The position numbers were made by a program, and so were the translations under genes. DNA of 64,000 bases from a virus. Taxonomy: Duplodnaviria; Caudoviricetes. Numbering within the stretch: position 1 is the stretch's first letter; each line of letters starts with the position of its first letter. The stretch lies in the IMG/VR virus record IMGVR_UViG_3300025867_000005. One strand, given 5' to 3'. The notes beneath the pieces are model-generated. The model saw only the letters and a program-made list of their open reading frames with translations, was not told the origin of the DNA and did no database searches. Below are positions 20 to 55,242 of the stretch, one piece after another.

Positions 20-337
20 ATGTTATATCCGTGTTTCGTCGCGAGGTTTATTCTTCGTTATCAAAAGTGGAAACAGCCATACGCGGAGTTAAAGCACAGG
101 CGTCGTTATAACCAAGGTGTTTATGTCGATGTTGTTAAAAAGATCAAGATGTCGGTAAGGGACGGGAAAACCTTTTGTTACGAAATCGGTCTTTCAGAAC
201 ATACGGTAAAATATCTTCGGAAGAAGCTTATGCGCAGGGGTTACGATGTCGGGATTTACGATATCAATGGCAAGTATCTTGTCGAAGGTGAAATCAAAAA
301 CACAGAAACATATTCTATTTGTGTCAATTGGGAGTAA
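20..337 (+). CDS. hypothetical protein
   Basis: ORF with GGAAGG RBS. Confidence 0.6.
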   Translation: MLYPCFVARFILRYQKWKQPYAELKHRRRYNQGVYVDVVKKIKMSVRDGKTFCYEIGLSEHTVKYLRKKLMRRGYDVGIYDINGKYLVEGEIKNTETYSICVNWE

Positions 338-354
338 GGAAAGAGGTAGAGATA

Positions 355-1140
355 ATGGAAACAGATTTGAAGAATCAGATTGTTACGTGGATCAAGGATT
401 GGTTTAAGACCAACGGAGACGGATGTCATGCTGTTATCGGGATCAGCGGAGGGAAAGATAGTAGTGTTGTAGCCGCTCTCTGTGTGGAAGCCTTGGGTAA
501 GGACAGGGTACTCGGTGTCTTGATGCCTAACCGCAGGCAGGATGATATTGATTGCAGTTATAAGCTGGTAGAACATTTGGGAATCCAACATCTGCTGGTG
601 GATATCGGGAATGCTTATGAAGCTTTGACGAACAGCATTGACAAGGCAATGATTGATGTCAATTACAGCAATGCGGTTCAAAACAATCCTTCCGCGAAAC
701 CGTATGATTTCAATTCCGTGTATTGGAACAACACACCGGCTAGATTGCGCATGACCACTCTTTACGGTATTGCCGCCTGTGTCAACGGACGTGTTGCGAA
801 TACCTGTAATTTGAGTGAAAACTTCATTTCATATAGCACTAAATTTGGAGATGCGGCCGGTGATTTCAGTCCCCTTAGCGATTTGACTGTTACCGAAGTC
901 AAGGCTTTGGGATATCAGTTGGGATTGCCCAAGGATTTGATTGAGAAGGTTCCTGCGGATGGAATGTGTGGGCAGACGGACGAAGACAGGCTTGGTTTTA
1001 CATATGCCGTTTTGGACAAGTATATCCGGACGGGAGAAATTGAAGACTTGGAAGTCAAGGTTAGGATTGACAACATGCACGTTGCTGGTTTGCACAAACT
1101 CAGGTATATGGACGGCTTTAAGAAGCCTGAAAGAATTTGA
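355..1140 (+). CDS. nadE: NH3-dependent NAD+ synthetase
   Basis: GISGGKDSS PP-loop, ARLRM, TCNLSE, YSTKFGD, QTDEDRLG motifs; start moved to ATG 355 after GAGG. Confidence 0.93.
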   Translation: METDLKNQIVTWIKDWFKTNGDGCHAVIGISGGKDSSVVAALCVEALGKDRVLGVLMPNRRQDDIDCSYKLVEHLGIQHLLVDIGNAYEALTNSIDKAMIDVNYSNAVQNNPSAKPYDFNSVYWNNTPARLRMTTLYGIAACVNGRVANTCNLSENFISYSTKFGDAAGDFSPLSDLTVTEVKALGYQLGLPKDLIEKVPADGMCGQTDEDRLGFTYAVLDKYIRTGEIEDLEVKVRIDNMHVAGLHKLRYMDGFKKPERI

Positions 1141-1157
1141 AAGCTTTTCGGACGAGT

Positions 1158-1189
1158 CTATTGACACCGTGTATCGCTTTTGATATGGT
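1158..1189 (+). promoter_or_regulatory. sigma70-like early promoter (representative of ~30 copies)
   Basis: CTA-TTGACA, 17 nt spacer, TATGGT; similar at ~3075, 5066, 7802, 9582, 10257, 14442, 15892, 17245, 18033, 21729, 22023, 28514, 28736, 33990, 36682, 39629, 47147, 50432, 51917, 54095, 60275, 60733, 63364, 63838. Confidence 0.75.
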
Positions 1190-1214
1190 GTTGGCATTGA
1201 AAGGATTTTTCGTT

Positions 1215-2108
1215 ATGGGATATATGCACATAAACCAGCTTTACAAGGACCAAACAATTCTTGAATTCAAGGAAGCCTTTGCAATGGAAAAGGTTCATGG
1301 GACTTCCTCGAACATTTCTTGGAATGGGACAGAGGTCAGCTTTTTCGCCGGTGGAGAAAGTCATGTAAATTTCGTCAATCTTTTTGACAAAGAAGCCCTG
1401 AAATCGGCTTTCCAGAAGGTTTTCGGTGACACTCCTGCTATTATCTACGGAGAAGCCCACGGAGGCAGCCAACAGAAGATGTCGAAGACGTATGGAGACC
1501 GTTTGCGCTTTATTGCCTTTGATGTCTTTTCTTCTGACAGGTTCTGGGATGTCGAGGATGCCTACCGTCTTGTTACAGAAGATTTTGGTTTGCTGTTCGT
1601 TCCATTCCAAAGGATTCCAGCGACAGTAGAGGCATTTGAAATTAAAAAAAACGCGCCTTCTGAGGTTGCGGCAATTTACGGTTGTCAAGGGAATACCGAC
1701 AGGTTCGGCTTCTGTCCTCCTATCAGGGAGGGAATTGTCATCCGCCCCATTCACGAGTTTACCGACAAGTGGGGAAAACGAGTGATTTGCAAACACAAAC
1801 GCCCTGAATTTCAGGAACGTCAAAATACCCCGGATGTCAAGGATTTCGATCCTGAGAAGATAAAACAGATGGAAGAGGCAGATGCTGTTGCTGAAGAATG
1901 GGTTGTTGTGGAAAGGCTTAATCATGTTTTGGACAAGCTAGGTAATCCTAAAGAATTGTCCATGACGGGGAAGGTTATAAGCGCTATGGTTGAAGATGTT
2001 CTTCGGGAAGCAGAAGGTGAAATCAATCTTGATGACAAATCAAGAATCGCCAAAGCAATCGGGAACAAGACGGTGAAGATGTACAAGGAATTTTGCAGAA
2101 AGGTTTGA
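1215..2108 (+). CDS. RNA ligase, Rnl2-like
   Basis: motif I EKVHGT, YGE, FIAFDV, REGIVIR, KHK nucleotidyltransferase motifs. Confidence 0.8.
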   Translation: MGYMHINQLYKDQTILEFKEAFAMEKVHGTSSNISWNGTEVSFFAGGESHVNFVNLFDKEALKSAFQKVFGDTPAIIYGEAHGGSQQKMSKTYGDRLRFIAFDVFSSDRFWDVEDAYRLVTEDFGLLFVPFQRIPATVEAFEIKKNAPSEVAAIYGCQGNTDRFGFCPPIREGIVIRPIHEFTDKWGKRVICKHKRPEFQERQNTPDVKDFDPEKIKQMEEADAVAEEWVVVERLNHVLDKLGNPKELSMTGKVISAMVEDVLREAEGEINLDDKSRIAKAIGNKTVKMYKEFCRKV

Positions 2109-5159: not shown

Positions 5160-6383
5160 ATGGGTAAGACTCTCGGAATCAAGATGAGCAAGGCGGAACG
5201 TGAACAGGCTATTTCAAAGTTCATGGTTAAACTTCTAAAGGAAAAGGAAAAGGCGGTTGTCTTTAAGACCCCCCATGAGGTAGTGAAGTCAGACATTACT
5301 GTCAAAGCATTGCTTGACAAGACGGCGACAAGCATGTGCGGACTGCCGGAAATCAATCTGAACCCGATTTTCCAGCGGGGATTCGTTTGGGGTCAGGACA
5401 AAGAAGACGCTTTGTTGAACACGATCCTTGAAGGCGGGCAGATCCCTAGCCTTACATTCGGTAAAGTGCGGGACAAGAACCCCAGCAGTTTTAATCGAAT
5501 CTGTTGTGTCGATGGAGGTAATCGGATTCAGACTCTTTTGCGTTTCATCAATAACAAACGCGCGATTGCCGGTCTGTTCTGTCGAGACGAAGACGACGGA
5601 AGTGTTTCTGTTGATTCTACCAAGACCGTGAATCTGTATATCGGAAAGAAGTTTAAGGATCTTCCCGTTGACGTTCAAAACAAGATTCTGAACTATAAGT
5701 TTTCTTTTATCATTGAAGAGGTTGAGAAGGAAAATGATTTGACCAATATTTTCTTGCGGTTGAATTGCGGCGGTGTGGATATGGATTTCGGGCAGATTCT
5801 TATTGCCAAGTATCGGGAAACGGAATTCGGAAAGGCAATCTTGAATTTTATCGAAACAGAAACAGGGCGTGTTCTTCTTGGTCGCAAACGTGTCGGCAAA
5901 GTCAGCATTCCGAGTCTTTTCCTCCGGTGTTCTGGAATCGTCGCGACGGCAAGTGACTTTATGCGGTTTGTCGGGCGTGGCGGTGCCGATCAGTTTCTTG
6001 GAGAAAGTTCTGCTACTTCTTCTAAGGAAGCCGACAACAGCATGCTTCATTTCAAGAAGGCGGTGGAAGTGTTCAACAAGTATTTCTCAGATTTCGAGTT
6101 TTATCAGCACGTCTTTGAAAAGAATGGCGCTAAGAAACTTGTTACCTGTACTTTCTCAAAACAAGAGAAGGTTAAGACGGCCATTATTTCCGTTCTTTGC
6201 GGAATCGATGATCTTGATTTTGTTATCAAGAATCACATGGCCATCGGAGAAAATCTTGTTCAAAAGCTTCTTCCGTCTACGGTGGCAGATTCAATTCTGT
6301 TGAACCTCCTTACCGTTCAAACGACCATGCGCGGTCGCCGTGAACAGGCAATGATGCAAATCCGTGAATGCTTTGGAATTTAA
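5160..6383 (+). CDS. DUF262 (ParB-like/GmrS-type) domain protein
   Basis: FQRGFVW, VDGGNRIQT, IFLRLN.GG motifs. Confidence 0.8.
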   Translation: MGKTLGIKMSKAEREQAISKFMVKLLKEKEKAVVFKTPHEVVKSDITVKALLDKTATSMCGLPEINLNPIFQRGFVWGQDKEDALLNTILEGGQIPSLTFGKVRDKNPSSFNRICCVDGGNRIQTLLRFINNKRAIAGLFCRDEDDGSVSVDSTKTVNLYIGKKFKDLPVDVQNKILNYKFSFIIEEVEKENDLTNIFLRLNCGGVDMDFGQILIAKYRETEFGKAILNFIETETGRVLLGRKRVGKVSIPSLFLRCSGIVATASDFMRFVGRGGADQFLGESSATSSKEADNSMLHFKKAVEVFNKYFSDFEFYQHVFEKNGAKKLVTCTFSKQEKVKTAIISVLCGIDDLDFVIKNHMAIGENLVQKLLPSTVADSILLNLLTVQTTMRGRREQAMMQIRECFGI

Positions 6384-6696: not shown

Positions 6697-7363
6697 GAAA
6701 GACTTTAATTATTGTCCGAAGAAAGCTGCATTTAGAAAAGAATGTATCTCCAAACCCATCCTTGAAATCTTCAGTGGACCTTTGCCAGAAGACAAAATCA
6801 TTGTGGATACAGCGGGGGAATACTCAAAGAACGTCAAGGCGACAGCATGTTATCAGCTTCTTAAAGCAGGGGCGATCACTTCGACTACCCAATTCATGGG
6901 CGTTGACAACGAATCGAAATCCGGAAGTGATGGCGTTGTCAAGACAAATACTTTACGGTATGGACAGGGTTGCCGCTGGCATATTCCTTGTGTCTGTGAT
7001 GAGATTCAAAATTTCTGTTTGAGTAACAGAGACAGAATCGGGTTTATCAGTCTTGACCTTCAGGCATTGGCCCCGAATTGTTTCTTTGTGTTCGAAAGAA
7101 CATTACAAGCGATGCAGGGAGCCAGTCATAAATTCGGAATTTGTTTCAACTCCATTTTCAGCTTGCCTTGGAATATGCAAGAGAACCTTGTCAAAAACGG
7201 GCTTGTGGAAGAGGCGATGGAAACGGAATTTCAACGCTATCAAGAAGCTAATCCTTTTTTCGTCGATCTTCTTCAAAGCTACATTCCGATGTCTTGGTTC
7301 TGGTATGAAGGATGTGGAAAATCTCAAACTATTTTGGGAAGTTTTGTTTTTGTAAAGGAGTAA
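6689..7363 (+). CDS. hypothetical protein, possible degenerate SAM-dependent methyltransferase fold
   Basis: IIVDTAG..FMGVD..ISLDL pattern; weak. Confidence 0.5.
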   Translation: MAKKDFNYCPKKAAFRKECISKPILEIFSGPLPEDKIIVDTAGEYSKNVKATACYQLLKAGAITSTTQFMGVDNESKSGSDGVVKTNTLRYGQGCRWHIPCVCDEIQNFCLSNRDRIGFISLDLQALAPNCFFVFERTLQAMQGASHKFGICFNSIFSLPWNMQENLVKNGLVEEAMETEFQRYQEANPFFVDLLQSYIPMSWFWYEGCGKSQTILGSFVFVKE

Positions 7364-7393
7364 AATTATGTCTCTTTTCGCCACTGTGTTTTC

Positions 7394-7663
7394 ATGGTCT
7401 TTTTCGTATTGTTTGTAAGCCTAATGATTAAATCGGCTACACTTGACAGGAAAAGGAAAATTGCTGTAGTCAAACCTGGAAGCATTTTTGTCCAAAGCAA
7501 TGAAGAACAGAATCCTTTCGCAAAAGACTATCATGAATATGTTATCCTTGAAGTGAAAAACGGTTATGTTTTATATCAAGACACAAAATCTTTGATAATT
7601 TATACTACAGATATCAACACCTTCATTTATCTGTATCGCCTTCAACAGGGAGTAAAATCATGA
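7394..7663 (+). CDS. hypothetical membrane-anchored protein
   Basis: hydrophobic N-terminus. Confidence 0.5.
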   Translation: MVFFVLFVSLMIKSATLDRKRKIAVVKPGSIFVQSNEEQNPFAKDYHEYVILEVKNGYVLYQDTKSLIIYTTDINTFIYLYRLQQGVKS

Positions 7664-7866
7664 AAAAGTTTCTCAAGTATCTGTTCACTCATGTAAGCCT
7701 TAAACCAAGTCATCCGGAAGAATCAGATCCGGGTTGGGAAGTCCGTTGGATTTTCTTCAAAATTCCGTTCCTGAAAAGAAATGTAAAAAAAGAAGACGAC
7801 CCTGTTGACAAGAACGGCAACATTTGATAATGTATTGTCATTGAAAGCAAACAAAGGAATTGAATT

Positions 7867-24875: not shown

Positions 24876-25268
24876 ATGATAGAAGAATATGTAATCGGGA
24901 AAATATTAGAAATCAGAGAGAAAGAAGAAAACACATCTAGAAGCATTGTCAGTATTTGTGTCGAAGGAAGAACAGAGACTTCGGAACATTTTAAAGAATA
25001 TGCCAAGATGTTCAAATCAGGAGACGAAGTTATTTGTGTTTGGAGACCTGAATTCAAAAAGATTACGAATATGTGGTTTCCTAATTTATGGACAAAGATA
25101 GCCAAACAGATAGAGCCATATCCAACCGTCTTGTTAAAGACAACAAGTAAAAAAGGGAAAACATATTGGAGAAAAGCAAGGGTAGATTTATTAGAAAAGA
25201 AGAAACAAAAGAAAACCATTGAAAACCCTTCGATTGTAAAATCAGGGAAAAACTTGATAATGTATTGA
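24876..25268 (+). CDS. hypothetical protein
   Basis: GGAGG RBS. Confidence 0.55.
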   Translation: MIEEYVIGKILEIREKEENTSRSIVSICVEGRTETSEHFKEYAKMFKSGDEVICVWRPEFKKITNMWFPNLWTKIAKQIEPYPTVLLKTTSKKGKTYWRKARVDLLEKKKQKKTIENPSIVKSGKNLIMY

Positions 25269-25327
25269 AATCCCTATTTACAGAAAACCGCAAATCTGTT
25301 ATTTTATAAAAAAGGAAGCAAAAGGAA

Positions 25328-25657
25328 ATGATTGAAAACGAACTGAAGATTCTTAGACACAGCTTGGGAACGGATTGGGAAGGGGATCTTACTTGGCATA
25401 GGAATTATTTTGATCCCGGCGGAGAAGACATCAAAATTTGTGAAAGCCTTCTTGCTAGAGGATTGATGACAAAGGCAAAGACGGCCTTTATCGGGAATAA
25501 TTTGTATTATGTGACAGAAGCTGGAAAACAGTTTGTCAGGGAAAATATCATCCAGAAACCTAAGTTGTCTCGAAGCAAGGAACGGTATCGGAAATATCTT
25601 CAGGAAGACAGTTGTTTGGATTTTGGAGAATGGTTAAAGAAAGGTCGGTATAAGTGA
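25328..25657 (+). CDS. hypothetical protein
   Basis: RBS. Confidence 0.65.
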   Translation: MIENELKILRHSLGTDWEGDLTWHRNYFDPGGEDIKICESLLARGLMTKAKTAFIGNNLYYVTEAGKQFVRENIIQKPKLSRSKERYRKYLQEDSCLDFGEWLKKGRYK

Positions 25658-26715
25658 AATTTTTCATCTACGGTGGAACGATTGACGGAGAACACAGCAG
25701 GACTTCGGGTATTGTCAACAAAATCAAAACCTGTTTGTTGGATTACGGAGGCGGAATGTCGATGAACGGACATCCATTGGATACACCGTCATTGGTACAG
25801 GATTTATACAATTCAAACCGGTGGATAGACACTATGATTTGGATGCCGGATATCAGGAACGAAGAACCAAAACATTATCCTATCAAGAAGGTAGGGGATG
25901 TTTTGATTTGTTCCAAAGTTATGCGGGAAGGCTATACCCGATTGGATGCCGTCAGCCGTATTTTTAAAATGCAGGGTAATGCCGTCATCTGCATTTACAA
26001 AGACGAAACTCCTTTCCGTTTCGAGTTGATAGATGCTCTCGGGAATATTTGGTGTTCGACCACCGAAATCAGCGTTCTGTGCAAGGCTATCAATGACCTA
26101 TACAAACAGACGCGGGAAAGTGTACGACTCGGCTCAGTGCACGTCAATAGGCTTGACGGTTATCCTAGAGACAGAGACAGCATTCGGTATCTGATTCGTG
26201 CGAATCAAGCTTTGAAAGACAAAATCATGGAAAGCTGCGGAAACCGGTTTTTCGGAAATATAAGCACAAGATGTCAGAACCTATTCCCGAGTTGTTCCGG
26301 TACCGGCGTTGTTTTTGTCAGTCCGAGGAATTGTGACAAAACCGGCTTGACGGCTGAAGATATGGTTCCCTGTTATCTTGAAGACAGTTTGGTTTGTTAC
26401 GGTGGACAGATGAAACCGAGTGTCGATACTCCGATACAGATTGCCCTGTATAACCAATTGCCTGGAATCAAATACATGATTCATGGACATGCATTTCTAA
26501 AACCAGGCAGTTATTCTTTTGATGTTTCAGAGACAAATGAATACCGGTTTTGCGGGGACTACAGGGAAAAAGATTTGATTTTGAAAGTAATACCAGAAGG
26601 ATCGGAATACGGTGTCGTAAATTTAAAAAATCACGGATTCCTTATCTATTCTTCGAATGAAGACCAACTGAAAGAAATCTTAACTTCTTCAGACTGGGAA
26701 ATGAAAAGATGGTAG
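25654..26715 (+). CDS. class II aldolase/adducin-domain protein
   Basis: FGNISTR, KPSVDTPIQ, IHGH, LKNHG motifs. Confidence 0.75.
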   Translation: MKFFIYGGTIDGEHSRTSGIVNKIKTCLLDYGGGMSMNGHPLDTPSLVQDLYNSNRWIDTMIWMPDIRNEEPKHYPIKKVGDVLICSKVMREGYTRLDAVSRIFKMQGNAVICIYKDETPFRFELIDALGNIWCSTTEISVLCKAINDLYKQTRESVRLGSVHVNRLDGYPRDRDSIRYLIRANQALKDKIMESCGNRFFGNISTRCQNLFPSCSGTGVVFVSPRNCDKTGLTAEDMVPCYLEDSLVCYGGQMKPSVDTPIQIALYNQLPGIKYMIHGHAFLKPGSYSFDVSETNEYRFCGDYREKDLILKVIPEGSEYGVVNLKNHGFLIYSSNEDQLKEILTSSDWEMKRW

Positions 26716-27246: not shown

Positions 27247-27493
27247 ATTTATTTTGATATTTGTGAAATGTTTGCGCGAAGAATCTATAATGTGTTAGGA
27301 GACGGAATGAAAGAAACGACAAATAGGATAAACTTGATTACAGGGCGAAAACCCTATAGTCGTTTTTTGTCTAATGGAGGCAAACGAAACTAACCGTTAA
27401 GAGAAAGTTTTAGATTTTTAATGGAAGACACTTGACGGGAGTTAAAGAAACTGTTAAAGTGTCTTTTGTTTTCTACGAGAAGAAGTTGTTTTT

Positions 27494-27583
27494 GGAGAGT
27501 TGGCAGAATTGGTAAATGCGCGGGCCTGGAAAGCCTGCGGGAATCAAAAACCCACGAGGGTTCGAACCCCTCACTCTCCTCCA
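27494..27583 (+). tRNA. tRNA-Ser(GGA)
   Basis: cloverleaf, long V arm, CCA. Confidence 0.92.
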
Positions 27584-27604
27584 GTTTTTGAAATTTGAGA
27601 TTAA

Positions 27605-27697
27605 GGAGGGTTGGGGGAATTGGTTGAACCCGGATGTCTCGAAAACATCTGAATCGGCTAACACCCGGTTCTGTCAGTTCGAATCTGACACCCTCTT
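27605..27697 (+). tRNA. tRNA-Ser(CGA), no encoded CCA
   Basis: GATGT-CT-CGA-AA-ACATC; TTCGAAT. Confidence 0.88.
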
Positions 27698-27767
27698 GCT
27701 GGATAAGTTGAAGTACCTTTACGTGGTTTCTGGTATAGGGTCGCTTGCGATTCTCGAAATCTTCAAC
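27698..27767 (+). ncRNA. HDV-like (theta) self-cleaving ribozyme
   Basis: P1 GCTGGA/TCTGGT, P2 GTTGAAG/CTTCAAC, P3 ACC/GGT, L3 TTTACGT, P4 hairpin, J4/2 CGAAAT; G1 directly after tRNA discriminator. Confidence 0.75.
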
Positions 27768-27788
27768 AGTGTTCTTTAAAATTAGAAT

Positions 27789-27876
27789 CGGAGTTTAGCT
27801 CAGTTGGTAGAGCACCGCACTTTTAATGCGGGGGTAGCGTAAGCAATCACGGGTTCGAACCCCGTAACTCCGGCCA
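27789..27876 (+). tRNA. tRNA-Lys(TTT), long variable arm
   Basis: cloverleaf, CCA. Confidence 0.9.
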
Positions 27877-27892
27877 TTAAAGGGAAACAAAA

Positions 27893-27924
27893 GTTGCGTC
27901 CCCTGCGGGCGCATGAATTGAAAC
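27893..27924 (+). CRISPR. solitary type I-C-like CRISPR repeat unit 1
   Basis: GTTGCGTCCCCTGCGGGCGCATGAATTGAAAC, 32 nt, hairpin plus ATTGAAAC end. Confidence 0.75.
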
Positions 27925-28034
27925 CGACGCAGACTAAGAATCTGTGGCTGCCGAAAGGCAGCGGTTAATTTTGACAATTGAATAAGTTCTTGAATTCACA
28001 CAGGTTCCCTTAAATGGATTCTTGTGTGAAATTT

Positions 28035-28109
28035 GCGGGTGTATCTCAAAGGCTAGAGACTCAGTTTACCAAACTGATTATGAGAGTTCAATTCTCTTCT
28101 CCCGCTCCA
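28035..28109 (+). tRNA. tRNA-Gly(ACC)
   Basis: TCAGT-TT-ACC-AA-ACTGA; U73; CCA. Confidence 0.85.
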
Positions 28110-28284
28110 GATGGGTCCAATCGCCCCATGATTGGTAGCCAGTTCACATGACTGGTTTGCAGCGATATCAGATGTATGGATTTCAGTAGGAGCCTCAGTG
28201 TGACCGCAATGAAATCCAGGCATTGAAGTATTGGAATCTGTTTTAGAAAAAATCATGGCAGTAACCTCTGTGTAAAAGGTAAAT

Positions 28285-28383
28285 AGTAGAATAGGCCAAA
28301 TTGGTAGGGCAGTTGACTGTTACTCAACCCAAGACAATCTTAACCGATTGTGTGTGCAGGTTCGAATCCTGCTTCTACTGCCA
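28285..28383 (+). tRNA. tRNA-Asn(GTT), very long variable arm
   Basis: cloverleaf, CCA. Confidence 0.88.
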
Positions 28384-28392
28384 TTTTAAGAA

Positions 28393-28469
28393 CGGCGCGT
28401 GGGTCAACTTGGTAGACCGCTTGATTCGGGTTCAAGAATTTGCTGGTTCAAATCCAGTCGCGCCGACCA
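28393..28469 (+). tRNA. tRNA-Pro(CGG)
   Basis: cloverleaf, CCA. Confidence 0.92.
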
Positions 28470-28872
28470 TGTTTGAACGGGTTTGAAGAAAATGAAAAAA
28501 ATCTTCAGTATCCCTATTGACAACATGCCGTGGATTTAGTAAGATGTGCGGCGTTGAAAGGACAAGTAGGGAAACCAAAAATCCTGACAACAAATGTTCT
28601 TTGAGAGATGAAATGATGGTTCTGAATAGGTCAGAAGGAAGCGATGCTATGACGGTGGCAACCCAATGGCTAAAACGCGGCCAGATACGGTTCGATTCCG
28701 TGATTCAGAAAAATCAGAAAAATTTTTCGAAGACCACTTGACAGACGGCGGCGGTTTTGCTAAAGTCTGCGGTGTTGAAGAGAAAAAGGCAAAAAGCGGT
28801 TTGACGCCGCGCCCTGCGGAAAAGTTCAGAAATGAACTGGGGTAAAAATTGACAACTGAATACGATTTGAAA

Positions 28873-29250
28873 AAGAGTCTCTGAAGACCGGCCTGAATGA
28901 AAAGCTCAGGAAATGGGAACAAATCCCGCCCGGAAAAAAGAGACTTATCGCCATGCCGCCTTAAAACGGTATGGACTGGTTGATGAATCCAAGATTCCGT
29001 TCCCTTAAAGGAATGTTGAGTCAAGTGAAGTCAATCAAGAATTTCTGAAAACAGGCGGTGTCTGCCTGACCCTATTTAATAGTAGGGTGAAAGGACTCGG
29101 GCGTTAGTTCTGTGTTCAATCCGTAGCGCTTCCTTGAGAAGTGTATAACGTGTTGAAAGGTGTTAATCTTAGAAATCAGATTCACAGGGTCTGATGGAGA
29201 TGTCGGTTGCCAGACTTGTGTGGCAATTAAAAAGCACCGCTGAACGCCAA
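28873..29250 (+). ncRNA. structured RNA candidate
   Basis: ORF-free, consecutive hairpins (AGTCTCT/AGAGACT, CCATGCCG/CGGTATGG, CAGGC/GCCTG, TTGCCA/TGGCAA). Confidence 0.45.
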
Positions 29251-29255
29251 ATCTT

Positions 29256-29344
29256 GAGGGTATGGAGTAATTGGTTAACTCGCCAGGTTTTCATCCTGGA
29301 AACGCACTGCGCTTGTGCGGGTTCGAATCCCGCTACCCTTGCCA
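29256..29344 (+). tRNA. tRNA-Glu(TTC), long variable region
   Basis: cloverleaf, CCA. Confidence 0.9.
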
Positions 29345-29581
29345 TCTTTCGATGCGAATATCGGACAGACAATTTTGAAAATCTTAAGAAGGTAGATTCA
29401 TGGTTCGACGGAATTGTGAATCCTGACCTAACAGGGATAGATTCTACGTGGTGTATGGTGCACACTGGCCCCCTCAAACGGGCCGGGGGACAACGTTCAA
29501 GTCGTTGACGGAAGAACAAGTTTGTGTCTGCAAAGACGCATAAGTGAAATCCCCTACAACTTTACCCCTGAACAGGGGAAT

Positions 29582-29657
29582 GCATCGGTAGTTCAATTGG
29601 TAGAACGATGGACTTCCACTCCGTAGGTTGCCGGTTCAAGCCCGGTCCGATGCTCCA
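29582..29657 (+). tRNA. tRNA-Gly(TCC)
   Basis: cloverleaf, CCA. Confidence 0.92.
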
Positions 29658-29658
29658 T

Positions 29659-29687
29659 GTTGCACAAGTTTGTGTATGAATTGAAAT
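29659..29687 (+). CRISPR. solitary I-C-like repeat unit 2 (shortened)
   Basis: GTTGCACAAGTTTGTGTATGAATTGAAAT. Confidence 0.6.
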
Positions 29688-29731
29688 AAATAGCGGTATA
29701 TCAGTTAGTAGATAGTTTCCATGATTTTTAT

Positions 29732-29807
29732 AGGAGTGTCGTATAGATGGTTTTTACGGATGTCTGATAAACATCTTAAGAGGGTTCGACTCCCTCCACT
29801 CCTACCA
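29732..29807 (+). tRNA. tRNA-Ile(GAT)
   Basis: cloverleaf, CCA. Confidence 0.92.
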
Positions 29808-29918
29808 TTTGTCGGAATTAGAACTGTCGTGAAATTCACATTGATCAGTGAAAAGTAATTCTGGAGCCGCATAGACAGTTATATACCCCCTCGGTCAAAG
29901 GGTACGACAATTAATTTT

Positions 29919-29994
29919 GGGGCTGTCGTCTAAGAGGAAGGACATAGGGCTGAAAATCCTACGGTGATGGTTTCGAGTACCTCTGGCCCCACCA
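29919..29994 (+). tRNA. tRNA-Phe(GAA)
   Basis: cloverleaf, CCA. Confidence 0.88.
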
Positions 29995-30092
29995 ATTTAA
30001 AGCTGAATAGCAACGTATCCAAGCCGTTGTGCCCGTCCCTTCTTTTGGAAGGTAATGATATGCGGTTGAAATCCGAAGCTTGGCCGATTTAC

Positions 30093-30212
30093 GGGGATGT
30101 GGCGCAATGGCAAACACGGGTTGTATCCTAACAGCTTAGGTCGTGCGGAACAGCCTGTTGTCTAAATCCAAATTACGACAACTTGTATGTTCGAATCCTG
30201 CCTTCCCCATCA
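30093..30212 (+). ncRNA. tRNA-like RNA with extra arms
   Basis: acceptor GGGGATG/CTTCCCC, D-loop-like TGGCAA, TTCGAAT; two extra helices. Confidence 0.5.
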
Positions 30213-30219
30213 TTTTTTA

Positions 30220-30383
30220 CGGGACGAAGTAAAACGGAAAGGTCTCGGATCAATTGATCCCGAACACATGTCAGACTGGTAAGCGCAACCGAATTGACTT
30301 CGGGTTTATTTTCCGATAAAAGACTATAACACCAAGGAATGGTGCCTTGGAAATATTTGGTTCGACTCCAAAAGTCCCGACCA
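30220..30383 (+). ncRNA. tRNA-like RNA with giant D-domain (type A)
   Basis: CGGGAC/GTCCCG-A-CCA, T arm TTTGG-TTCGACT-CCAAA, ~100-nt D insertion. Confidence 0.65.
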
Positions 30384-30495
30384 ACATCTGTTTCTAATTA
30401 ATTCAGAGAAAACATTGAACAGCCGTGGGCTCTGTTTAATCTCAATCGGTGAGTTTACCTAATGCGGTAAAAGTCCGTGGCCTCCTCCGTTTTAT

Positions 30496-30584
30496 TGATA
30501 GGTGCGGAGAATGGTATTCCAGTTGGCTGTTAACCAACCGTCCCGCAAGGGCAATCGCTGGTTCGAATCCAGTCCTATCAGCCA
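30496..30584 (+). tRNA. tRNA-Asn(GTT), long variable arm
   Basis: cloverleaf, CCA. Confidence 0.88.
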
Positions 30585-30592
30585 TTTTTTAT

Positions 30593-30725
30593 GCAGTAGG
30601 AGTAAAACGTAAAGTCGGTTCTGGAAACCTCTGGGTTCGTTCGATGTCGTGCCCAGTCAAGGAACTGATATAACACCTCCAAACGAAGGAGGAGATATCT
30701 GGTTAGACTCCAGTCTACTGTACCA
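30593..30725 (+). ncRNA. tRNA-like RNA with giant D-domain (type A)
   Basis: GCAGTAG/CTACTGT-A-CCA; shares AGTAAAACG and TATAACACC with 30220-30383. Confidence 0.65.
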
Positions 30726-30972
30726 TTGCTGCGACTTGTAGCATAAGAATTTCTGGCGTAGCTTAAGCCTTACCCAAACAAAACAGTCCCTATGTCAGGG
30801 ATATGATGTTTGTAAAACAAGGGATAGACCTTGGGTTTAAATTGAAAGGGTGTGGCCACATCTTTTTAAGGAAAACCCAAATAAGGGAACGTGTTTGAAA
30901 TCCCCTTGGGGAAAAAACAACTGCGATGATGCAGTAAGATGATAAGGAAGAAGAGATAGACGGTTTGCATTT

Positions 30973-31047
30973 GACATACTGGTGTAATCTGGTTAGCACG
31001 GCCCTGATAGAGGGGGAGGTCCGGGTTCAAATCCCTAGTGTCGCTAG
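30973..31047 (+). pseudogene. degenerate tRNA
   Basis: D arm TGGTGTAATCTGGTTAGCAC and GGGTTCAAATCCC, but poor anticodon arm and acceptor stem. Confidence 0.5.
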
Positions 31048-31398
31048 ATGCGGGCTGGAACAAGATTGAAATCCTCTGAAGGTACTTATCCGCCAGACCA
31101 ATTTTACCTGCTTCTCAGAAGTTATAGGGTTCTGTTTTGAAACATAAGAATATCAATTTGTTTAGCGGATATCCCTTATGAAAAGGAAGTCTTATGATTC
31201 TGAGGATATTCATTCCCATTTCGTTTATGGAGAGTGCTGGTGAAAGACGCATAGGAAAGGACAATTGGAAGGGATTCACGACTTGCGATATGCCTATGCG
31301 CCTTAAAGTGAATATGCGTTGTCATTCAGTCGGATGTCAATGTGAACTATTTACGGCTCATATCCTTTGGCGGATGCCTTAATCCGTGGAAGGTAAAT

Positions 31399-31472
31399 GG
31401 GGATGTATCTCAATTGGACAGAGTGTGTGGCTTCTAACCACAAGGTTGCGGGTTCGACTCCCGCTTTCCCCA
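31399..31472 (+). tRNA. tRNA-Arg(TCT), no encoded CCA
   Basis: TGTGG-CT-TCT-AA-CCACA. Confidence 0.9.
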
Positions 31473-31473
31473 C

Positions 31474-31543
31474 GGGTGATAAGTTGAAGTACCTTTACGT
31501 GGTTTCACCTATAGAGTCACTTGCGATTCTCGAAATCTTCAAC
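31474..31543 (+). ncRNA. HDV-like (theta) self-cleaving ribozyme
   Basis: P1 GGGTGA/TCACCT (covaries with copy at 27698), identical P2/P3/L3/J4-2. Confidence 0.8.
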
Positions 31544-32190
31544 AAAATGATATCTTGGATAATTTTTAAGAATTTCATAGCTTTCCCTTCTTTAAAGTGT
31601 TGGAAAGTTGAAACATCAATAATACAAAGTTCTATATTTCGTTCGTGACAAGCTTGGCATTTCCTGTTGTCATTGTTTTGAATTTTGGAAAGCTTATCTT
31701 CACCGTAGATAGGTTCGTAATGAAAGATACCATTTAGTTCGAAAGCAAGTTTCAAAGAAGGAATGTAGATATCTAGTTCTGAATTGATAGCGTCCTTCCT
31801 ATTGAAGTGGAATTCAAGATTTGGGTAAAGGATCGGCAACTTCGTTTCCAACCACCTTTCAAGCTTAGATATTTTTGTTCCTTTTGTTTTATGCATGTTA
31901 TTATAGGTTGCTGAACAAGATTGACTGCAAAAATGGTGTTTGGATTTCTTGATGCGCGAAATTTGTATCTTAAATTTTTTACTACATTGTTCGCAGTTGA
32001 TAAAAATTGGAGGATGAACAGATTGACCGAAACAGATAAGAGAACAATATTCAGAAGTTTCACCTTTTTTTGTATTTTGAATCCTGTGTTTTTCTTTGTA
32101 GAAAGTTTTACCGCAATGTTTACATTGTAACGGTAGTAGTTGACGTGATTTAGCTGCTTGGAATTCTTCTTCGGTAAAAAGTGGTATCAT
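31495..32190 (-). CDS. zinc-finger + Vsr-like homing endonuclease
   Basis: CxxC..FCSxSC repeats; ELDIYIPSLKLAFELNGIFHY. Confidence 0.8.
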   Translation of the reverse strand: MIPLFTEEEFQAAKSRQLLPLQCKHCGKTFYKEKHRIQNTKKGETSEYCSLICFGQSVHPPIFINCEQCSKKFKIQISRIKKSKHHFCSQSCSATYNNMHKTKGTKISKLERWLETKLPILYPNLEFHFNRKDAINSELDIYIPSLKLAFELNGIFHYEPIYGEDKLSKIQNNDNRKCQACHERNIELCIIDVSTFQHFKEGKAMKFLKIIQDIILLKISRIASDSIGETT

Positions 32191-32233
32191 AATCTATTCC
32201 TCCTACATATGGAATGAATATCGAAGAACAATT

Positions 32234-32256
32234 TTCGACTCTCGCCTTCCCCACCA
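32234..32256 (+). repeat. displaced duplicate of tRNA-Arg(TCT) 3' end
   Basis: TTCGACTCTCGCCTTCCCCACCA vs TTCGACTCCCGCTTTCCCCA at 31453-31472. Confidence 0.8.
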
Positions 32257-33646: not shown

Positions 33647-33736
33647 GAGAGTTTGGGTGAAATGAATTAGCCAACGGTCTGCAAAACCGTAAAACACAGA
33701 AATGTGATGAGGGTTTAAGTCCCTCAACTCTCTCCA
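33647..33736 (+). tRNA. tRNA-Cys(GCA), long variable arm
   Basis: cloverleaf, U73, CCA. Confidence 0.85.
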
Positions 33737-34362: not shown

Positions 34363-35366
34363 GGGAATATGGAATAACGGCTAGTTCACCTCACTTAACC
34401 ATTTCAATAGTTAAATATTCTGCCATTTTGTTTGATAATTATAATCCGTGTAGAGGAGACGTATGATACCACTTTACACCGAAGAAGAATTTAACAAGGC
34501 TAAATCAAGAGATTTACTTCCCAACCAATGTAAAAATTGCGGGAAGATTTTCTTTAGAGAAAAACACAATATAATGTTTTACATTAATAATGGAGGTGGA
34601 GATTTTTGTTCAATTTCTTGTTCTTTTAAATTCAATAACCCACTGATTGAAGTTGTTTGTCATACATGTGGAAAATCATTTAAGAAGAAAAAACTTGATG
34701 CAGATAAAGAAGAACGGCATTTTTGTAGTAGAAGTTGTGCTAATAAATATTCTTCAAATATCAATAAAGAACAAAAGACTTTAAACCAAAAGAAATGGGC
34801 AAATTCAGAAGAAGGAAAAAATTTTTTAACTAAAACAAGCAAATTGGCATGTATTAAAAGTATAGAAATTAGAAAACTTAAATGGAAAATGAATAAATGT
34901 CCGGTTTGTGGTAAAGAGTTTAGGGTAATGTTTAAACATAAGAAATACTGTTCGGCAACTTGTTATAATAAAATATCTGGTGGTATAAAAAGGGGGTCTA
35001 GTAGAGGTAAGCATGGTTGGTATAAGGGATACTGGTGTGATTCTTCTTGGGAACTTGCTTGGGTGATTTACAACCTTGATCATGGGATTAAGTTTGAAAG
35101 GAATCATCAAGGTTTTGAATACGAATTTGAAGGAAAGAAACATAAATACTATCCAGATTTCATTTTAGAAGATGGAACTTACGTTGAAATTAAATCTGTT
35201 ATGGATGAAAAGAACAAAGCTAAAATTGCTTCGTTCCCAACTTCAATTAAAGTTTTACAGCATAAAGAGATTAAAATATTCATAGACCATGCGATTAAAA
35301 TCTATGGTAAAAATTTCATCTCATTATATGAGGAAGGTCTGGGTTCGAATCCCGGTATTCTCGCCA
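34363..35366 (+). tRNA. tRNA (probably Asp) split at the anticodon by an endonuclease gene; halves 34363-34395 and 35327-35366
   Basis: GGGAATA/TATTCTC acceptor, CCTCA/TGAGG anticodon stem, G73, CCA. Confidence 0.75.
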
Positions 35367-36245: not shown

Positions 36246-36331
36246 CTGTGTGTAGTCCGTAATTTGGTAGCGGGTCGGCTTTGGGAGCCGGAGCGAAAGT
36301 CTTGTAGGTTCAAATCCTATCACACAGACCA
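36246..36331 (+). tRNA. tRNA-Pro(TGG)
   Basis: cloverleaf, extended V, CCA. Confidence 0.88.
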
Positions 36332-53514: not shown

Positions 53515-53796
53515 ATGGTAAACGTCCAAGACTTTAAGAACTATTACTGGTATAAGTATGTTGTCTTTGCCGATGGACAAATCTTATTCGGTGAAGTAGA
53601 TCGCCCTCATACTAGTATCCGTAACGGAAATGTTACGGCTATCGGAGCCGGTAAGATCAAGTATAATGACGGATGTTTCAGCTTCGATGAAAAGGGAAGT
53701 TTCACCCTTAATTTAAAAGAAGCTTGTCAAGAAGAAGTCCGGGCTTTTCTTGTAGGTTTGGGAATCCAAGAGGCAGAAGGGGAAGCCTTTTATTAA
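53515..53796 (+). CDS. hypothetical protein
   Basis: promoter plus RBS. Confidence 0.6.
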   Translation: MVNVQDFKNYYWYKYVVFADGQILFGEVDRPHTSIRNGNVTAIGAGKIKYNDGCFSFDEKGSFTLNLKEACQEEVRAFLVGLGIQEAEGEAFY

Positions 53797-53806
53797 GGAA
53801 ACAAGA

Positions 53807-54085
53807 ATGAAAGAGTTTTCTTATAGTGTTTGTCGCGGGAGATACCTTCTCGGGGAATTGAATCCAGACAGAATTGAAGCCTTTTATGTCAGAGGTAAGA
53901 CGAAGAAACGCTGTATCGAAATCCTGAAGACTTATGGGAAATGCCATGTAAGCTACAACCTCTTGTCAAATTACGGTGGTCTTTGGGGAAATTACATAAA
54001 TAAACCTTCTTTTGAAGGTGAGGGGCTTTGGATGACGAGAGATTTTTGTTCCAAAGAACTTATTCCCGTCTGGACAGAAGAATAA
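53807..54085 (+). CDS. hypothetical protein
   Basis: RBS. Confidence 0.6.
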   Translation: MKEFSYSVCRGRYLLGELNPDRIEAFYVRGKTKKRCIEILKTYGKCHVSYNLLSNYGGLWGNYINKPSFEGEGLWMTRDFCSKELIPVWTEE

Positions 54086-54158
54086 TATCATGTCCTATTG
54101 ACATCTGACAACAGTTGTGCTATATTGTCTTCATTCTAAGCAACCAAAGGAGACGATT

Positions 54159-55130
54159 ATGGAAACTATTGAAGAGGTTCTCGGTAAGGCGGATGTCGTT
54201 CGCGATTCTAAGGCCCGCAGGGTTCTGAATGTCAGTGATAAGGATAGCGGCATCACTCTTAAGGAAATCGAAACACAGGGCGTTACGATTGAGCGCCTTC
54301 TCAGTCTCGATGTCCCCGTGTTCACCTATGGCGGTCAAGTCACGATTCACGGAAGGTTTCAGGACGACATTCAGGACAACCTTCGCGTTGCCGGTTACAA
54401 GTCGGTTTTCAAGAACGGAAACGGTAGCCTTGGCGTCCGGTATGTCGCTGTTGACGGGGAAAAGAAACGTCGGCTTGAAGACATTTGCAGTCTCGGCGGC
54501 ATGTGGTGGGTGTCGATTGACAGCAAGGGTTGTCAGGCATCCCGTTCCTTTAGTGACAAGCAGGCTTGCTTGGATTGCTACAACAGCGCCCCGACTGATT
54601 ACATCGGAACCAAGTATGCCTTCCGTGGTATCTACGGACGGTTTTATGTGGTTCTGGAGATCGGTGCCGTCTACGAGAAAGACTTTTGGAAGCTCGCAGA
54701 ATCACTTAGCGGGCTAAATGAAGACGGTTATAAAAATGCTTGTGCGGAACGGGAAGCAAAGCGGGAAGCCGATAGGTTGGAATATGAGAAAAGGCTAAAA
54801 GAACAGGAAGCCAAAAACGCAGAAATCAAAGCCAACCAAGCCGTGATTCGTGCCGGTATGGATAAAGCCCTTGAAGACAGTGGCTTCGTTAAGACGGCGT
54901 ATAAAGGTCCGGGCACCTATGTTTATTCCTTCATTTCCCGATACTATTCCGACAAGGTTGGATATATGGTTGTTGAAGTCAAGAAGGGCGGTTTCGGGAG
55001 GACGCTTCGGCGTAGCGTCTTAGTCAAAGACATCGTGGCAATTAAGTCGGTTGTCTTCAGCGGCAAGGCTAAAGTGATTGATGAGCTGAACCTGAAAAGC
55101 ATGGAGAAAAAGACGATGTTCCTTGTCTAA
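54159..55130 (+). CDS. hypothetical protein
   Basis: promoter cassette, AGGAG, terminator at 55135-55169. Confidence 0.75.
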   Translation: METIEEVLGKADVVRDSKARRVLNVSDKDSGITLKEIETQGVTIERLLSLDVPVFTYGGQVTIHGRFQDDIQDNLRVAGYKSVFKNGNGSLGVRYVAVDGEKKRRLEDICSLGGMWWVSIDSKGCQASRSFSDKQACLDCYNSAPTDYIGTKYAFRGIYGRFYVVLEIGAVYEKDFWKLAESLSGLNEDGYKNACAEREAKREADRLEYEKRLKEQEAKNAEIKANQAVIRAGMDKALEDSGFVKTAYKGPGTYVYSFISRYYSDKVGYMVVEVKKGGFGRTLRRSVLVKDIVAIKSVVFSGKAKVIDELNLKSMEKKTMFLV

Positions 55131-55242
55131 AAAAGATCCCCTTGCCTCTTGACAGGCAGGGGGATTTTTAGTATAGTACGGGTATCAAAAGAACCAAAGG
55201 GTTTTGTAAACCCAAAGAGGTTCTAAAGAAAGGTTCTGAAAA

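Follow-up and report, generated by a model that had tools for sequence, protein, structure and literature searches.

Predicted HDV-like ribozymes at the 3′ ends of two CCA-less phage tRNAs and their link to a nuclease-gene cassette

Here we describe two tRNA genes of a jumbo phage that end without an encoded CCA and are each followed by a 70-nt RNA with a fold like that of the hepatitis delta virus (HDV) ribozyme. The DNA analysed, called the window below, is a stretch of 64,000 nucleotides that makes up bases 164667–228666 of a 304,025-bp IMG/VR virus record (IMGVR_UViG_3300025867_000005; rated complete, G+C 41.5%). Positions are those of the window, while coordinates introduced by ‘G000’ refer to the whole 304-kb genome. 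The public runs that hold the entire stretch are activated-sludge metagenomes, and a relative was found in a wastewater run. No cultured phage appears to be close, since a megablast search of 27400–31800 against 50,697 phage records returned a single 40-nt tRNA match. The two tRNA genes and the RNAs behind them are as follows.

27605–27697, plus strand: tRNA-Ser(CGA), class II, without encoded CCA (Rfam tRNA model, 48 bits; ARAGORN, 27604–27699); U27697 is the discriminator.
27698–27767, plus strand: HDV-like ribozyme 1, solo, without a nuclease gene; predicted cut at 27697/27698, candidate catalytic C27755.
31399–31473, plus strand: tRNA-Arg(UCU), without CCA (Rfam, 62 bits for 31399–31472; ARAGORN); discriminator A31472 followed by C31473.
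31474–31543, plus strand: HDV-like ribozyme 2; predicted cut at 31473/31474, candidate catalytic C31531.

Ribozyme 2 can be read with the coordinates of ribozyme 1 plus 3776. In ribozyme 1, the first helix (P1) joins 27698–27704 to 27728–27734 in six pairs that begin with a G1·U base pair, with a U·U at the seventh position. The linker J1/2 is AA in both copies, and P2 (27707–27714 with 27760–27767) pairs GTTGAAG with CTTCAAC and has a U·U at the end of its eight positions. P3 is ACC/GGT and its loop L3 is TTTACGT (UUUACGU in RNA), again in both copies. The partner strand of P1.1 is AT (AU) at 27735–27736, P4 (27737–27754) is an 18-nt element with a 7-bp stem and a tetraloop, and J4/2 is CGAAA, with its C at 27755 (31531 in ribozyme 2). 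The two copies are identical at 62 of 70 positions, and six of the eight differences make up three fully compensated P1 pairs, where C-G, U·G and G·U become G-C, G-C and U-A. A preliminary description, made from the letters alone, had reported near-identical HDV folds that differ mostly by compensatory changes in P1; both points hold, and the parse fits a nested double pseudoknot.

The placement of the ribozymes relative to the tRNAs is equally precise. Because the Rfam tRNA model ends at 27697 for tRNA-Ser(CGA) and at 31472 for tRNA-Arg(UCU), G1 follows the discriminator itself (Ser, offset 0) or the discriminator plus one C (Arg, offset +1), as had been claimed. For tRNA-Ser, ARAGORN offers an alternative in which the acceptor stem has 8 bp and G27698 is the discriminator; we favour the 7-bp acceptor with U27697, given the covariance model and the junction of T-stem and acceptor. 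ARAGORN predicts 29 tRNAs in the whole genome, all inside the window, and CCA is encoded in 26 of them and in one tRNA-Phe found by Rfam alone. Those without it are tRNA-Ser(CGA), tRNA-Arg(UCU) and a doubtful tRNA-like call at 29442–29517. All 27 other credible tRNAs of the genome (ARAGORN and Rfam) encode CCA, which bears out the earlier statement that the ribozyme-linked tRNAs are the sole intact ones lacking it; the odds that two random picks of 29 would be this pair are 1 in 406. An alternative genetic code was considered and rejected: dropping a stop codon lifts the coverage by open reading frames (ORFs) merely through shorter ORFs, and no suppressor tRNA is present, so that the standard code assumed in the preliminary description stands.

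Relatives were collected with a search pattern that fixed P3, L3 and the first bases of P4 and left P1, P2 and inner P4 free, so only the latter three provide independent evidence. The search yielded one IMG/VR contig (L003; L numbers denote comparison loci from IMG/VR or metagenomes) and nine metagenome loci of the same type, each behind a tRNA-like 3′ end, with G1 within one base of the tRNA end in the cases examined. Chance matches were many in the IMG/VR scans, where 121 of 155 cores lacked the fold, and accounted for 2 of 11 metagenome matches. When ten distinct sequences (eight of them metagenomic) are aligned with MAFFT, 95.6% of the 250 proposed pair cells are paired, against 34–52% in a control whose 3′ partners were slid by 1–3 columns. 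Both-sided changes are found in seven pairs (three in P1, two each in P2 and P4). The G1·U pair, the U...G of L3 (a 5′ U and a G able to form a reverse wobble) and the C of J4/2 are invariant in 10/10 sequences. The shortness of the motif, and nothing else, speaks for a chance HDV-like resemblance in a duplicated spacer. To this explanation we assign a negligible probability, because the 13-nt P3/L3 core, with an expectation of about 0.5 even when one mismatch is allowed, is present twice, a descriptor scan of the entire 304-kb genome finds these two sites as the only credible ones, and covariation and recurrence behind unrelated tRNAs refute it. Descriptor matches at G000 196346 (inside the nuclease ORF) and G000 271593 were rejected for their poor folds. 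The comparison supports both elements as HDV-type folds that are predicted to cut exactly at tRNA 3′ ends.

A wider HDV-like subclass was also observed in numerous IMG/VR contigs. It combines an L3 of UUUACGU, a P1.1 partner AU and a J4/2 of CUAA, and after the core come AUAAGUA, a variable-length P4 and GAAAC(U/C)AA. Loci include L005, L088, L097, L104, L126, L131 and L136, and several of the copies are found at the 3′ ends of tRNAs for Lys, Ala, Tyr, Pro, Leu and His.

At tRNA-Arg, the ribozyme is one part of a longer insert, a context missing from the preliminary description, with these features.

31453–32233, no strand assigned: the whole 781-bp insert, consisting of a spare tRNA 3′ end (T54–C74), the ribozyme, an antisense nuclease gene and a spacer.
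31495–32190, minus strand: gene of a 231-aa zinc-finger protein with a Vsr/EDxHD-like nuclease domain, a homing-endonuclease candidate (ORF; PHROG match).
32234–32256, plus strand: the displaced original tRNA-Arg 3′ end, T54–A76, with encoded CCA; 19/22 identical to 31452–31473.

The 3′ part of tRNA-Arg is thus insert sequence from T54 (31453) on. An insert-free allele is found on a wastewater contig, which joins base 31452, the last before the insert, straight to 32234. The nuclease ORF, with an AGGAGG 9 nt upstream of its ATG, ends inside ribozyme 2: its last 16 codons are antisense to the final 49 nt of that ribozyme. Its product matches PHROG families of homing/HNH endonucleases (E 1e-13 to 1e-6) and has 4461 homologues. 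A structural model (mean predicted local distance difference test score, pLDDT, 80) gives a weak but coherent Foldseek superposition on I-Bth0305I, Vsr and PvuRts1I. The likeness to I-Bth0305I (EDxHD) and the Vsr fold lies in the predicted C-terminal domain, which superposes with template-modelling scores by target of 0.71 and 0.44, whereas the N-terminal zinc-finger array differs and sequence similarity is below Pfam and PDB detection. Separately, a partial second homologue of the nuclease is encoded at 34463–34780 (plus strand, as the tRNAs) and covers residues 1–105 at 45% identity.

The same arrangement recurs in relatives. In L149, tRNA-Leu(CAA) is followed by a ribozyme, then a nuclease gene of 65% identity and lastly a CCA-bearing displaced 3′ end, whereas the window's own tRNA-Leu(CAA), 97% identical to that of L149, encodes CCA and has no insert. 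Alleles therefore differ by presence and absence with sharp boundaries at two loci, this one and the tRNA-Arg joint 31452|32234. Displaced 3′ ends with CCA are present in the window, L149, L164 and L154. Stages of decay are seen as well, with a truncated nuclease gene in L157 and only the displaced end remaining in L154. For a sample independent of the ribozyme, we chose six loci through nuclease homologues (of the 4461). In 6/6 the tRNA 3′ end abuts the 3′ end of the nuclease gene, tail-to-tail, and in 4/6 an HDV-like ribozyme lies between the genes, although one of these four repeats L149. The sample adds one more displaced 3′ end with CCA, and at one of its loci (L162) tRNA-Ser(CGA) is followed by a ribozyme with the P1 of ribozyme 1 and by a nuclease gene that is still present. 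Of the two ribozymes, at least the Arg copy forms part of an apparently selfish cassette with a nuclease gene, which invaded a tRNA gene.

Two side observations concern the cassettes of relatives. L149 has a second one behind tRNA-Pro(UGG), with a second copy of the nuclease gene (ribozyme at L149:7064–7136, gene at 7094–7792), and its ribozyme has a different HDV-like core, with P3 GCC/GGC and P1.1 GU/AC. In L157, a ribozyme of the window type (5303–5372) stands behind tRNA-Pro with an intact nuclease gene; its P1 5′ strand is that of L149 and L150, but with a matching U.

Theta ribozymes, which are minimal tRNA-associated HDV-like ribozymes of gut Caudoviricetes infecting Bacteroidota or Bacillota (Kienbeck et al. 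2024, PMC10879173), suggest another possible history. The ribozymes could be resident tRNA 3′-processing elements of the theta kind and the endonuclease a later, independent arrival that lands at the conserved tRNA/ribozyme junction, so that the ribozyme is a target and not cargo. Solo ribozymes are indeed as common as nuclease-linked ones (the Ser copy of the window, L148, L150, L152, L153 and L154), and in the nuclease-selected loci L165 and L167 the nuclease gene abuts the tRNA with no recognisable ribozyme. We nevertheless hold this history to be unlikely. In the insert-free alleles of tRNA-Leu(CAA) and tRNA-Arg(UCU), ribozyme and nuclease are jointly absent and CCA is kept; the ribozyme always stands between the spare and the displaced tRNA 3′ end; and in L157 and L154 the nuclease gene has decayed while the ribozyme persists, a process that accounts for solo copies.

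Arrival of ribozyme and nuclease gene together, with the ribozyme cleaving, is the reading we prefer, and several results count against it. For the Ser copy, neither a nuclease gene nor a displaced tRNA-Ser 3′ end occurs within 1.6 kb, so its origin in a cassette rests on the homology with L162; we propose that it is a copy that lost, or never had, the nuclease gene. (A wastewater contig with a perfect match to tRNA-Ser(CGA), whose fit ends exactly at 27697/27698, was not counted, as the sequence beyond was not seen.) For the nuclease, the Foldseek matches are weak (E 0.003–0.02; I-Bth0305I, E 0.012), a Pfam search of the 231-aa protein gave sub-threshold zinc-finger noise and no nuclease match, and a PDB sequence search detected no nuclease similarity. 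For the ribozymes, the invariance of P3, L3 and the start of P4 is without weight, being fixed by the search pattern. Of the checks proposed in the preliminary description, the descriptor scan found its two sites, and the covariance-model search was negative: Rfam HDV-type families gave no match on 27400–31800 at the gathering score or at E <= 10, only tRNAs and noise, with models that cannot encode the pseudoknots. P1.1 consists of one U-A pair and a U·U, hence a single Watson-Crick pair, and the end positions of P1 and P2 are U·U mismatches, so cleavage may be slow. An A·A mismatch at the fourth P1 pair is common to L149:6186–6255 and L150:3556–3628, which may be weakened copies. Finally, three activated-sludge metatranscriptomes held no contigs spanning either ribozyme (Logan contigs, which cannot show RNA ends).

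The weak P1.1, the mismatched helix ends and the lack of an Rfam match would also fit a conserved pseudoknotted RNA that does not, or no longer does, cleave, for example a stabiliser or terminator of the antisense nuclease mRNA or a processing signal for a protein nuclease; so would the overlap of the ribozyme 3′ part with the coding end of the nuclease gene. We consider such a role highly improbable, given that all catalytic landmarks are kept in 10/10 sequences, that solo copies without an overlapping gene retain the full fold, that G1 is never more than one base away from the tRNA end in the cases examined, and that CPEB3, which has the same style of P1.1, is active. The P1.1 positions behave as pairs in a set of sibling ribozymes with the same nuclease and two members of the wider phage subclass. 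Across this set, position 22–38 reads U-A, U-A, U-A, U·G and C-G, and position 21–39 reads U·U, G-C, C-G, C-G and U·U; the same-nuclease siblings have GU/AC, CU/AG and CU/GG, and the wider subclass has UC/GU. Judging from sequence comparison, the two RNAs are quite probably genuine HDV-type self-cleaving ribozymes, co-transcribed with the tRNA operon, that serve as the RNA module of a mobile cassette and cleave as predicted.

The fold, the position at the tRNA end, the link with the missing CCA, the cassette architecture and the presence or absence in alleles are observed, and from them we infer the steps of cleavage, end healing and homing. In the transcript of the tRNA operon, the ribozyme would fold behind the rebuilt tRNA into a nested double pseudoknot, and the J4/2 cytosine, with Mg2+, would cut the bond 5′ of G1. 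This would release tRNA-Ser ending at U73 and tRNA-Arg ending at C74, each with a 2′,3′-cyclic phosphate, and separate tRNA-Arg from ~700 nt of antisense nuclease RNA. The phage CCA-adding enzyme (through its HD domain), or a host enzyme, may then heal the end and add CCA or CA. A candidate for this role is the CCA-adding enzyme of the phage, a 494-aa protein (G000 53719–55203) with PolyA_pol head, RNA-binding and HD domains. The HD domain of the E. coli CCA enzyme removes 2′,3′-cyclic phosphates (PMC6961547), so the phage enzyme could heal the end and then add CCA. The phage also encodes a DRB0094-type RNA ligase and an Rnl2-like RNA ligase, and gene classes for a CCA-adding enzyme and RNA ligase are enriched in theta-bearing phages (PMC10879173). 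A 2′,5′ RNA ligase/cyclic phosphodiesterase domain (PF13563) is absent from the genome. In the window, the Rnl2-like ligase gene (1137–2108, plus strand) follows an NAD synthase gene (319–1140, plus strand), and two more genes of the RNA_ligase family lie elsewhere (G000 234844–235500 and 25246–26403).

On the DNA side, we propose that a homing-type endonuclease gene inserted itself into the T loop of tRNA genes (G53|T54). Its cassette would bring a spare, CCA-less tRNA 3′ end and a ribozyme, and push the original CCA-bearing end downstream. By giving the rebuilt tRNA a defined 3′ end, the ribozyme would render the insertion harmless, comparable to self-splicing for intron-borne endonucleases; most likely it keeps the invaded tRNA usable. 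The nuclease presumably cuts insert-free tRNA genes; when the break is repaired on the template of a genome with the insert, the whole segment from the tRNA body to the displaced end would be copied in. Ribozyme 2 would then belong to an intact cassette and ribozyme 1 would be a nuclease-less copy. More than 4000 unnamed nuclease homologues, together with the tail-to-tail arrangement with a tRNA in 6/6 sampled loci, suggest that mobile elements of a sizeable class, so far undescribed, carry ribozymes from one phage tRNA gene to another.

Other features of the tRNA region deserve mention. The ARAGORN call ‘tRNA-Leu(CAA)’ at 29442–29517 is probably a pseudo-tRNA, since its acceptor stem is poor and both CCA and an Rfam match are missing, and the tRNA detected by Rfam only is tRNA-Phe(GAA) at 29919–29994, with CCA. 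Several tRNAs are 86–99 nt long, which is unusual outside Leu, Ser and Tyr: those for Lys, Asn (two), Glu, Cys and Pro (27789–27876, 28285–28383, 29256–29344, 30496–30584, 33647–33736 and 36246–36331). Their excess of 10–25 nt apparently lies in the variable region, as directly seen for tRNA-Lys alone. Before tRNA-Arg, an ORF-poor gap holds a conserved structured RNA of ~351 nt (30750–31100), whose ends form a 7-bp stem followed by CCA and which contains a T-arm-like GGGTTCAAATCCC internally. Its identity to L149:1971–2329 is 78%, with 14 compensated pairs, and no Rfam family matched. Contigs 100% identical to it occur in three sludge metatranscriptome runs, and in one of them, 381 nt long (351 + k - 1), the sequence continues from 31099 at 30749, which is the pattern expected of a circular or tandem molecule.

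How do these RNAs compare with known systems? The preliminary description took them to be theta ribozymes, and much is shared: the cleavage site is close to the tRNA 3′ end (0 and +1 here; the theta criterion is ±5 nt), the linked tRNAs lack CCA, P3/L3 is almost letter-identical (ACC-U-NN-ACGU-GGU), the J4/2 CGAAA fits CNRA(N), and the phage has a CCA-adding enzyme and a DRB0094-type RNA ligase. As read off the delimited hit lists of its authors, the theta motif has a P1 of 6–7 nt, J1/2 of 1–3 nt, P2 of 7 nt and P3 of 3 nt, an L3 of U-NC-NCGY, a P1.1 partner GN, a P4 region of 4–8 nt and a J4/2 of CNRA(N) (PMC10879173). Here P4 is a true 7-bp stem-loop of 18 nt, compared with the 4–8 nt in those lists, P1.1 is UU/AU as opposed to NC/GN, and P1 and P2 end in U·U. 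Among the ~130 theta hits listed, none has a P1.1 of the UU/AU type, and a core with TT, TC or CT in L3 does not occur as plain text in the portion of the theta supplementary text that was searched (PMC10879173). By P4 and P1.1 as listed, therefore, both RNAs lie outside the published theta motif. They also differ in habitat (activated sludge, not gut) and in their link to an endonuclease cassette, which is absent from the description by Kienbeck et al. The novelty had earlier been placed in the sense tRNAs and the standard code, on the view that theta ribozymes serve mainly suppressor tRNAs of recoded phages. This does not agree with the published figures: theta-associated tRNAs are of all amino-acid types, only 20% are suppressors and only 4.5% encode CCA, and among phages with tRNA-associated theta 53% + 6% are recoded and ~41% use the standard code (PMC10879173). 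Sense tRNAs in a standard-code phage are consequently not new.

The core is closer in style to CPEB3, an active mammalian HDV-like ribozyme. Both have a P1.1 of one Watson-Crick pair and a U·U, a 7-nt L3 ending in ACGU and no J1.1/4 linker; unlike here, the Watson-Crick pair of CPEB3 is C-G (here U-A), and it is intronic in a mammalian gene with no link to a tRNA. So far, the published ribozymes that trim tRNA 3′ ends all come from gut phages and have a minimal motif, whereas the same job would be done here in a jumbo phage of activated sludge by a different core, with a CPEB3-like P1.1 and a full P4. As the published descriptor and Rfam both miss these RNAs, the family seems larger than database entries suggest. 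Association with a nuclease cassette could account for the very presence of ribozymes behind some phage tRNAs: a selfish gene might rely on the ribozyme to sit within a tRNA gene and yet leave it functional, and the cassette idea, if true, would explain how ribozymes move between unrelated tRNAs.

In the literature searched, no paper on a ribozyme-nuclease cassette in tRNA genes was found, and the mobile elements nearest to it each share a part of its design. SegB is a free-standing homing endonuclease in the tRNA cluster of T4 (PMC2330249), likewise a selfish nuclease gene next to essential genes; unlike the cassette, it occupies the space between tRNA genes and is not accompanied by a ribozyme. 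A replacement 3′ end is also supplied by integrase-driven islands and prophages in tRNA genes, which have their crossover in the T loop and leave the old 3′ end as a direct repeat on the far side. Here, in contrast, there is no integrase, the insert measures just 781 bp, and the replacement end lacks CCA and would be finished by means of a ribozyme. With the homing endonucleases of group I introns and inteins, the cassette shares a selfish nuclease gene inside an essential gene, a device that keeps the gene working and a presence that differs between related phages; the difference is that nothing is spliced here, the 3′ end of the gene being duplicated and the functional copy ended by a predicted self-cleaving ribozyme. 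We think it somewhat more probable than the contrary that homing endonucleases have, besides introns and inteins, a third means of residing in an essential gene, namely a tRNA cassette ended by an HDV-like ribozyme and finished by a CCA enzyme.

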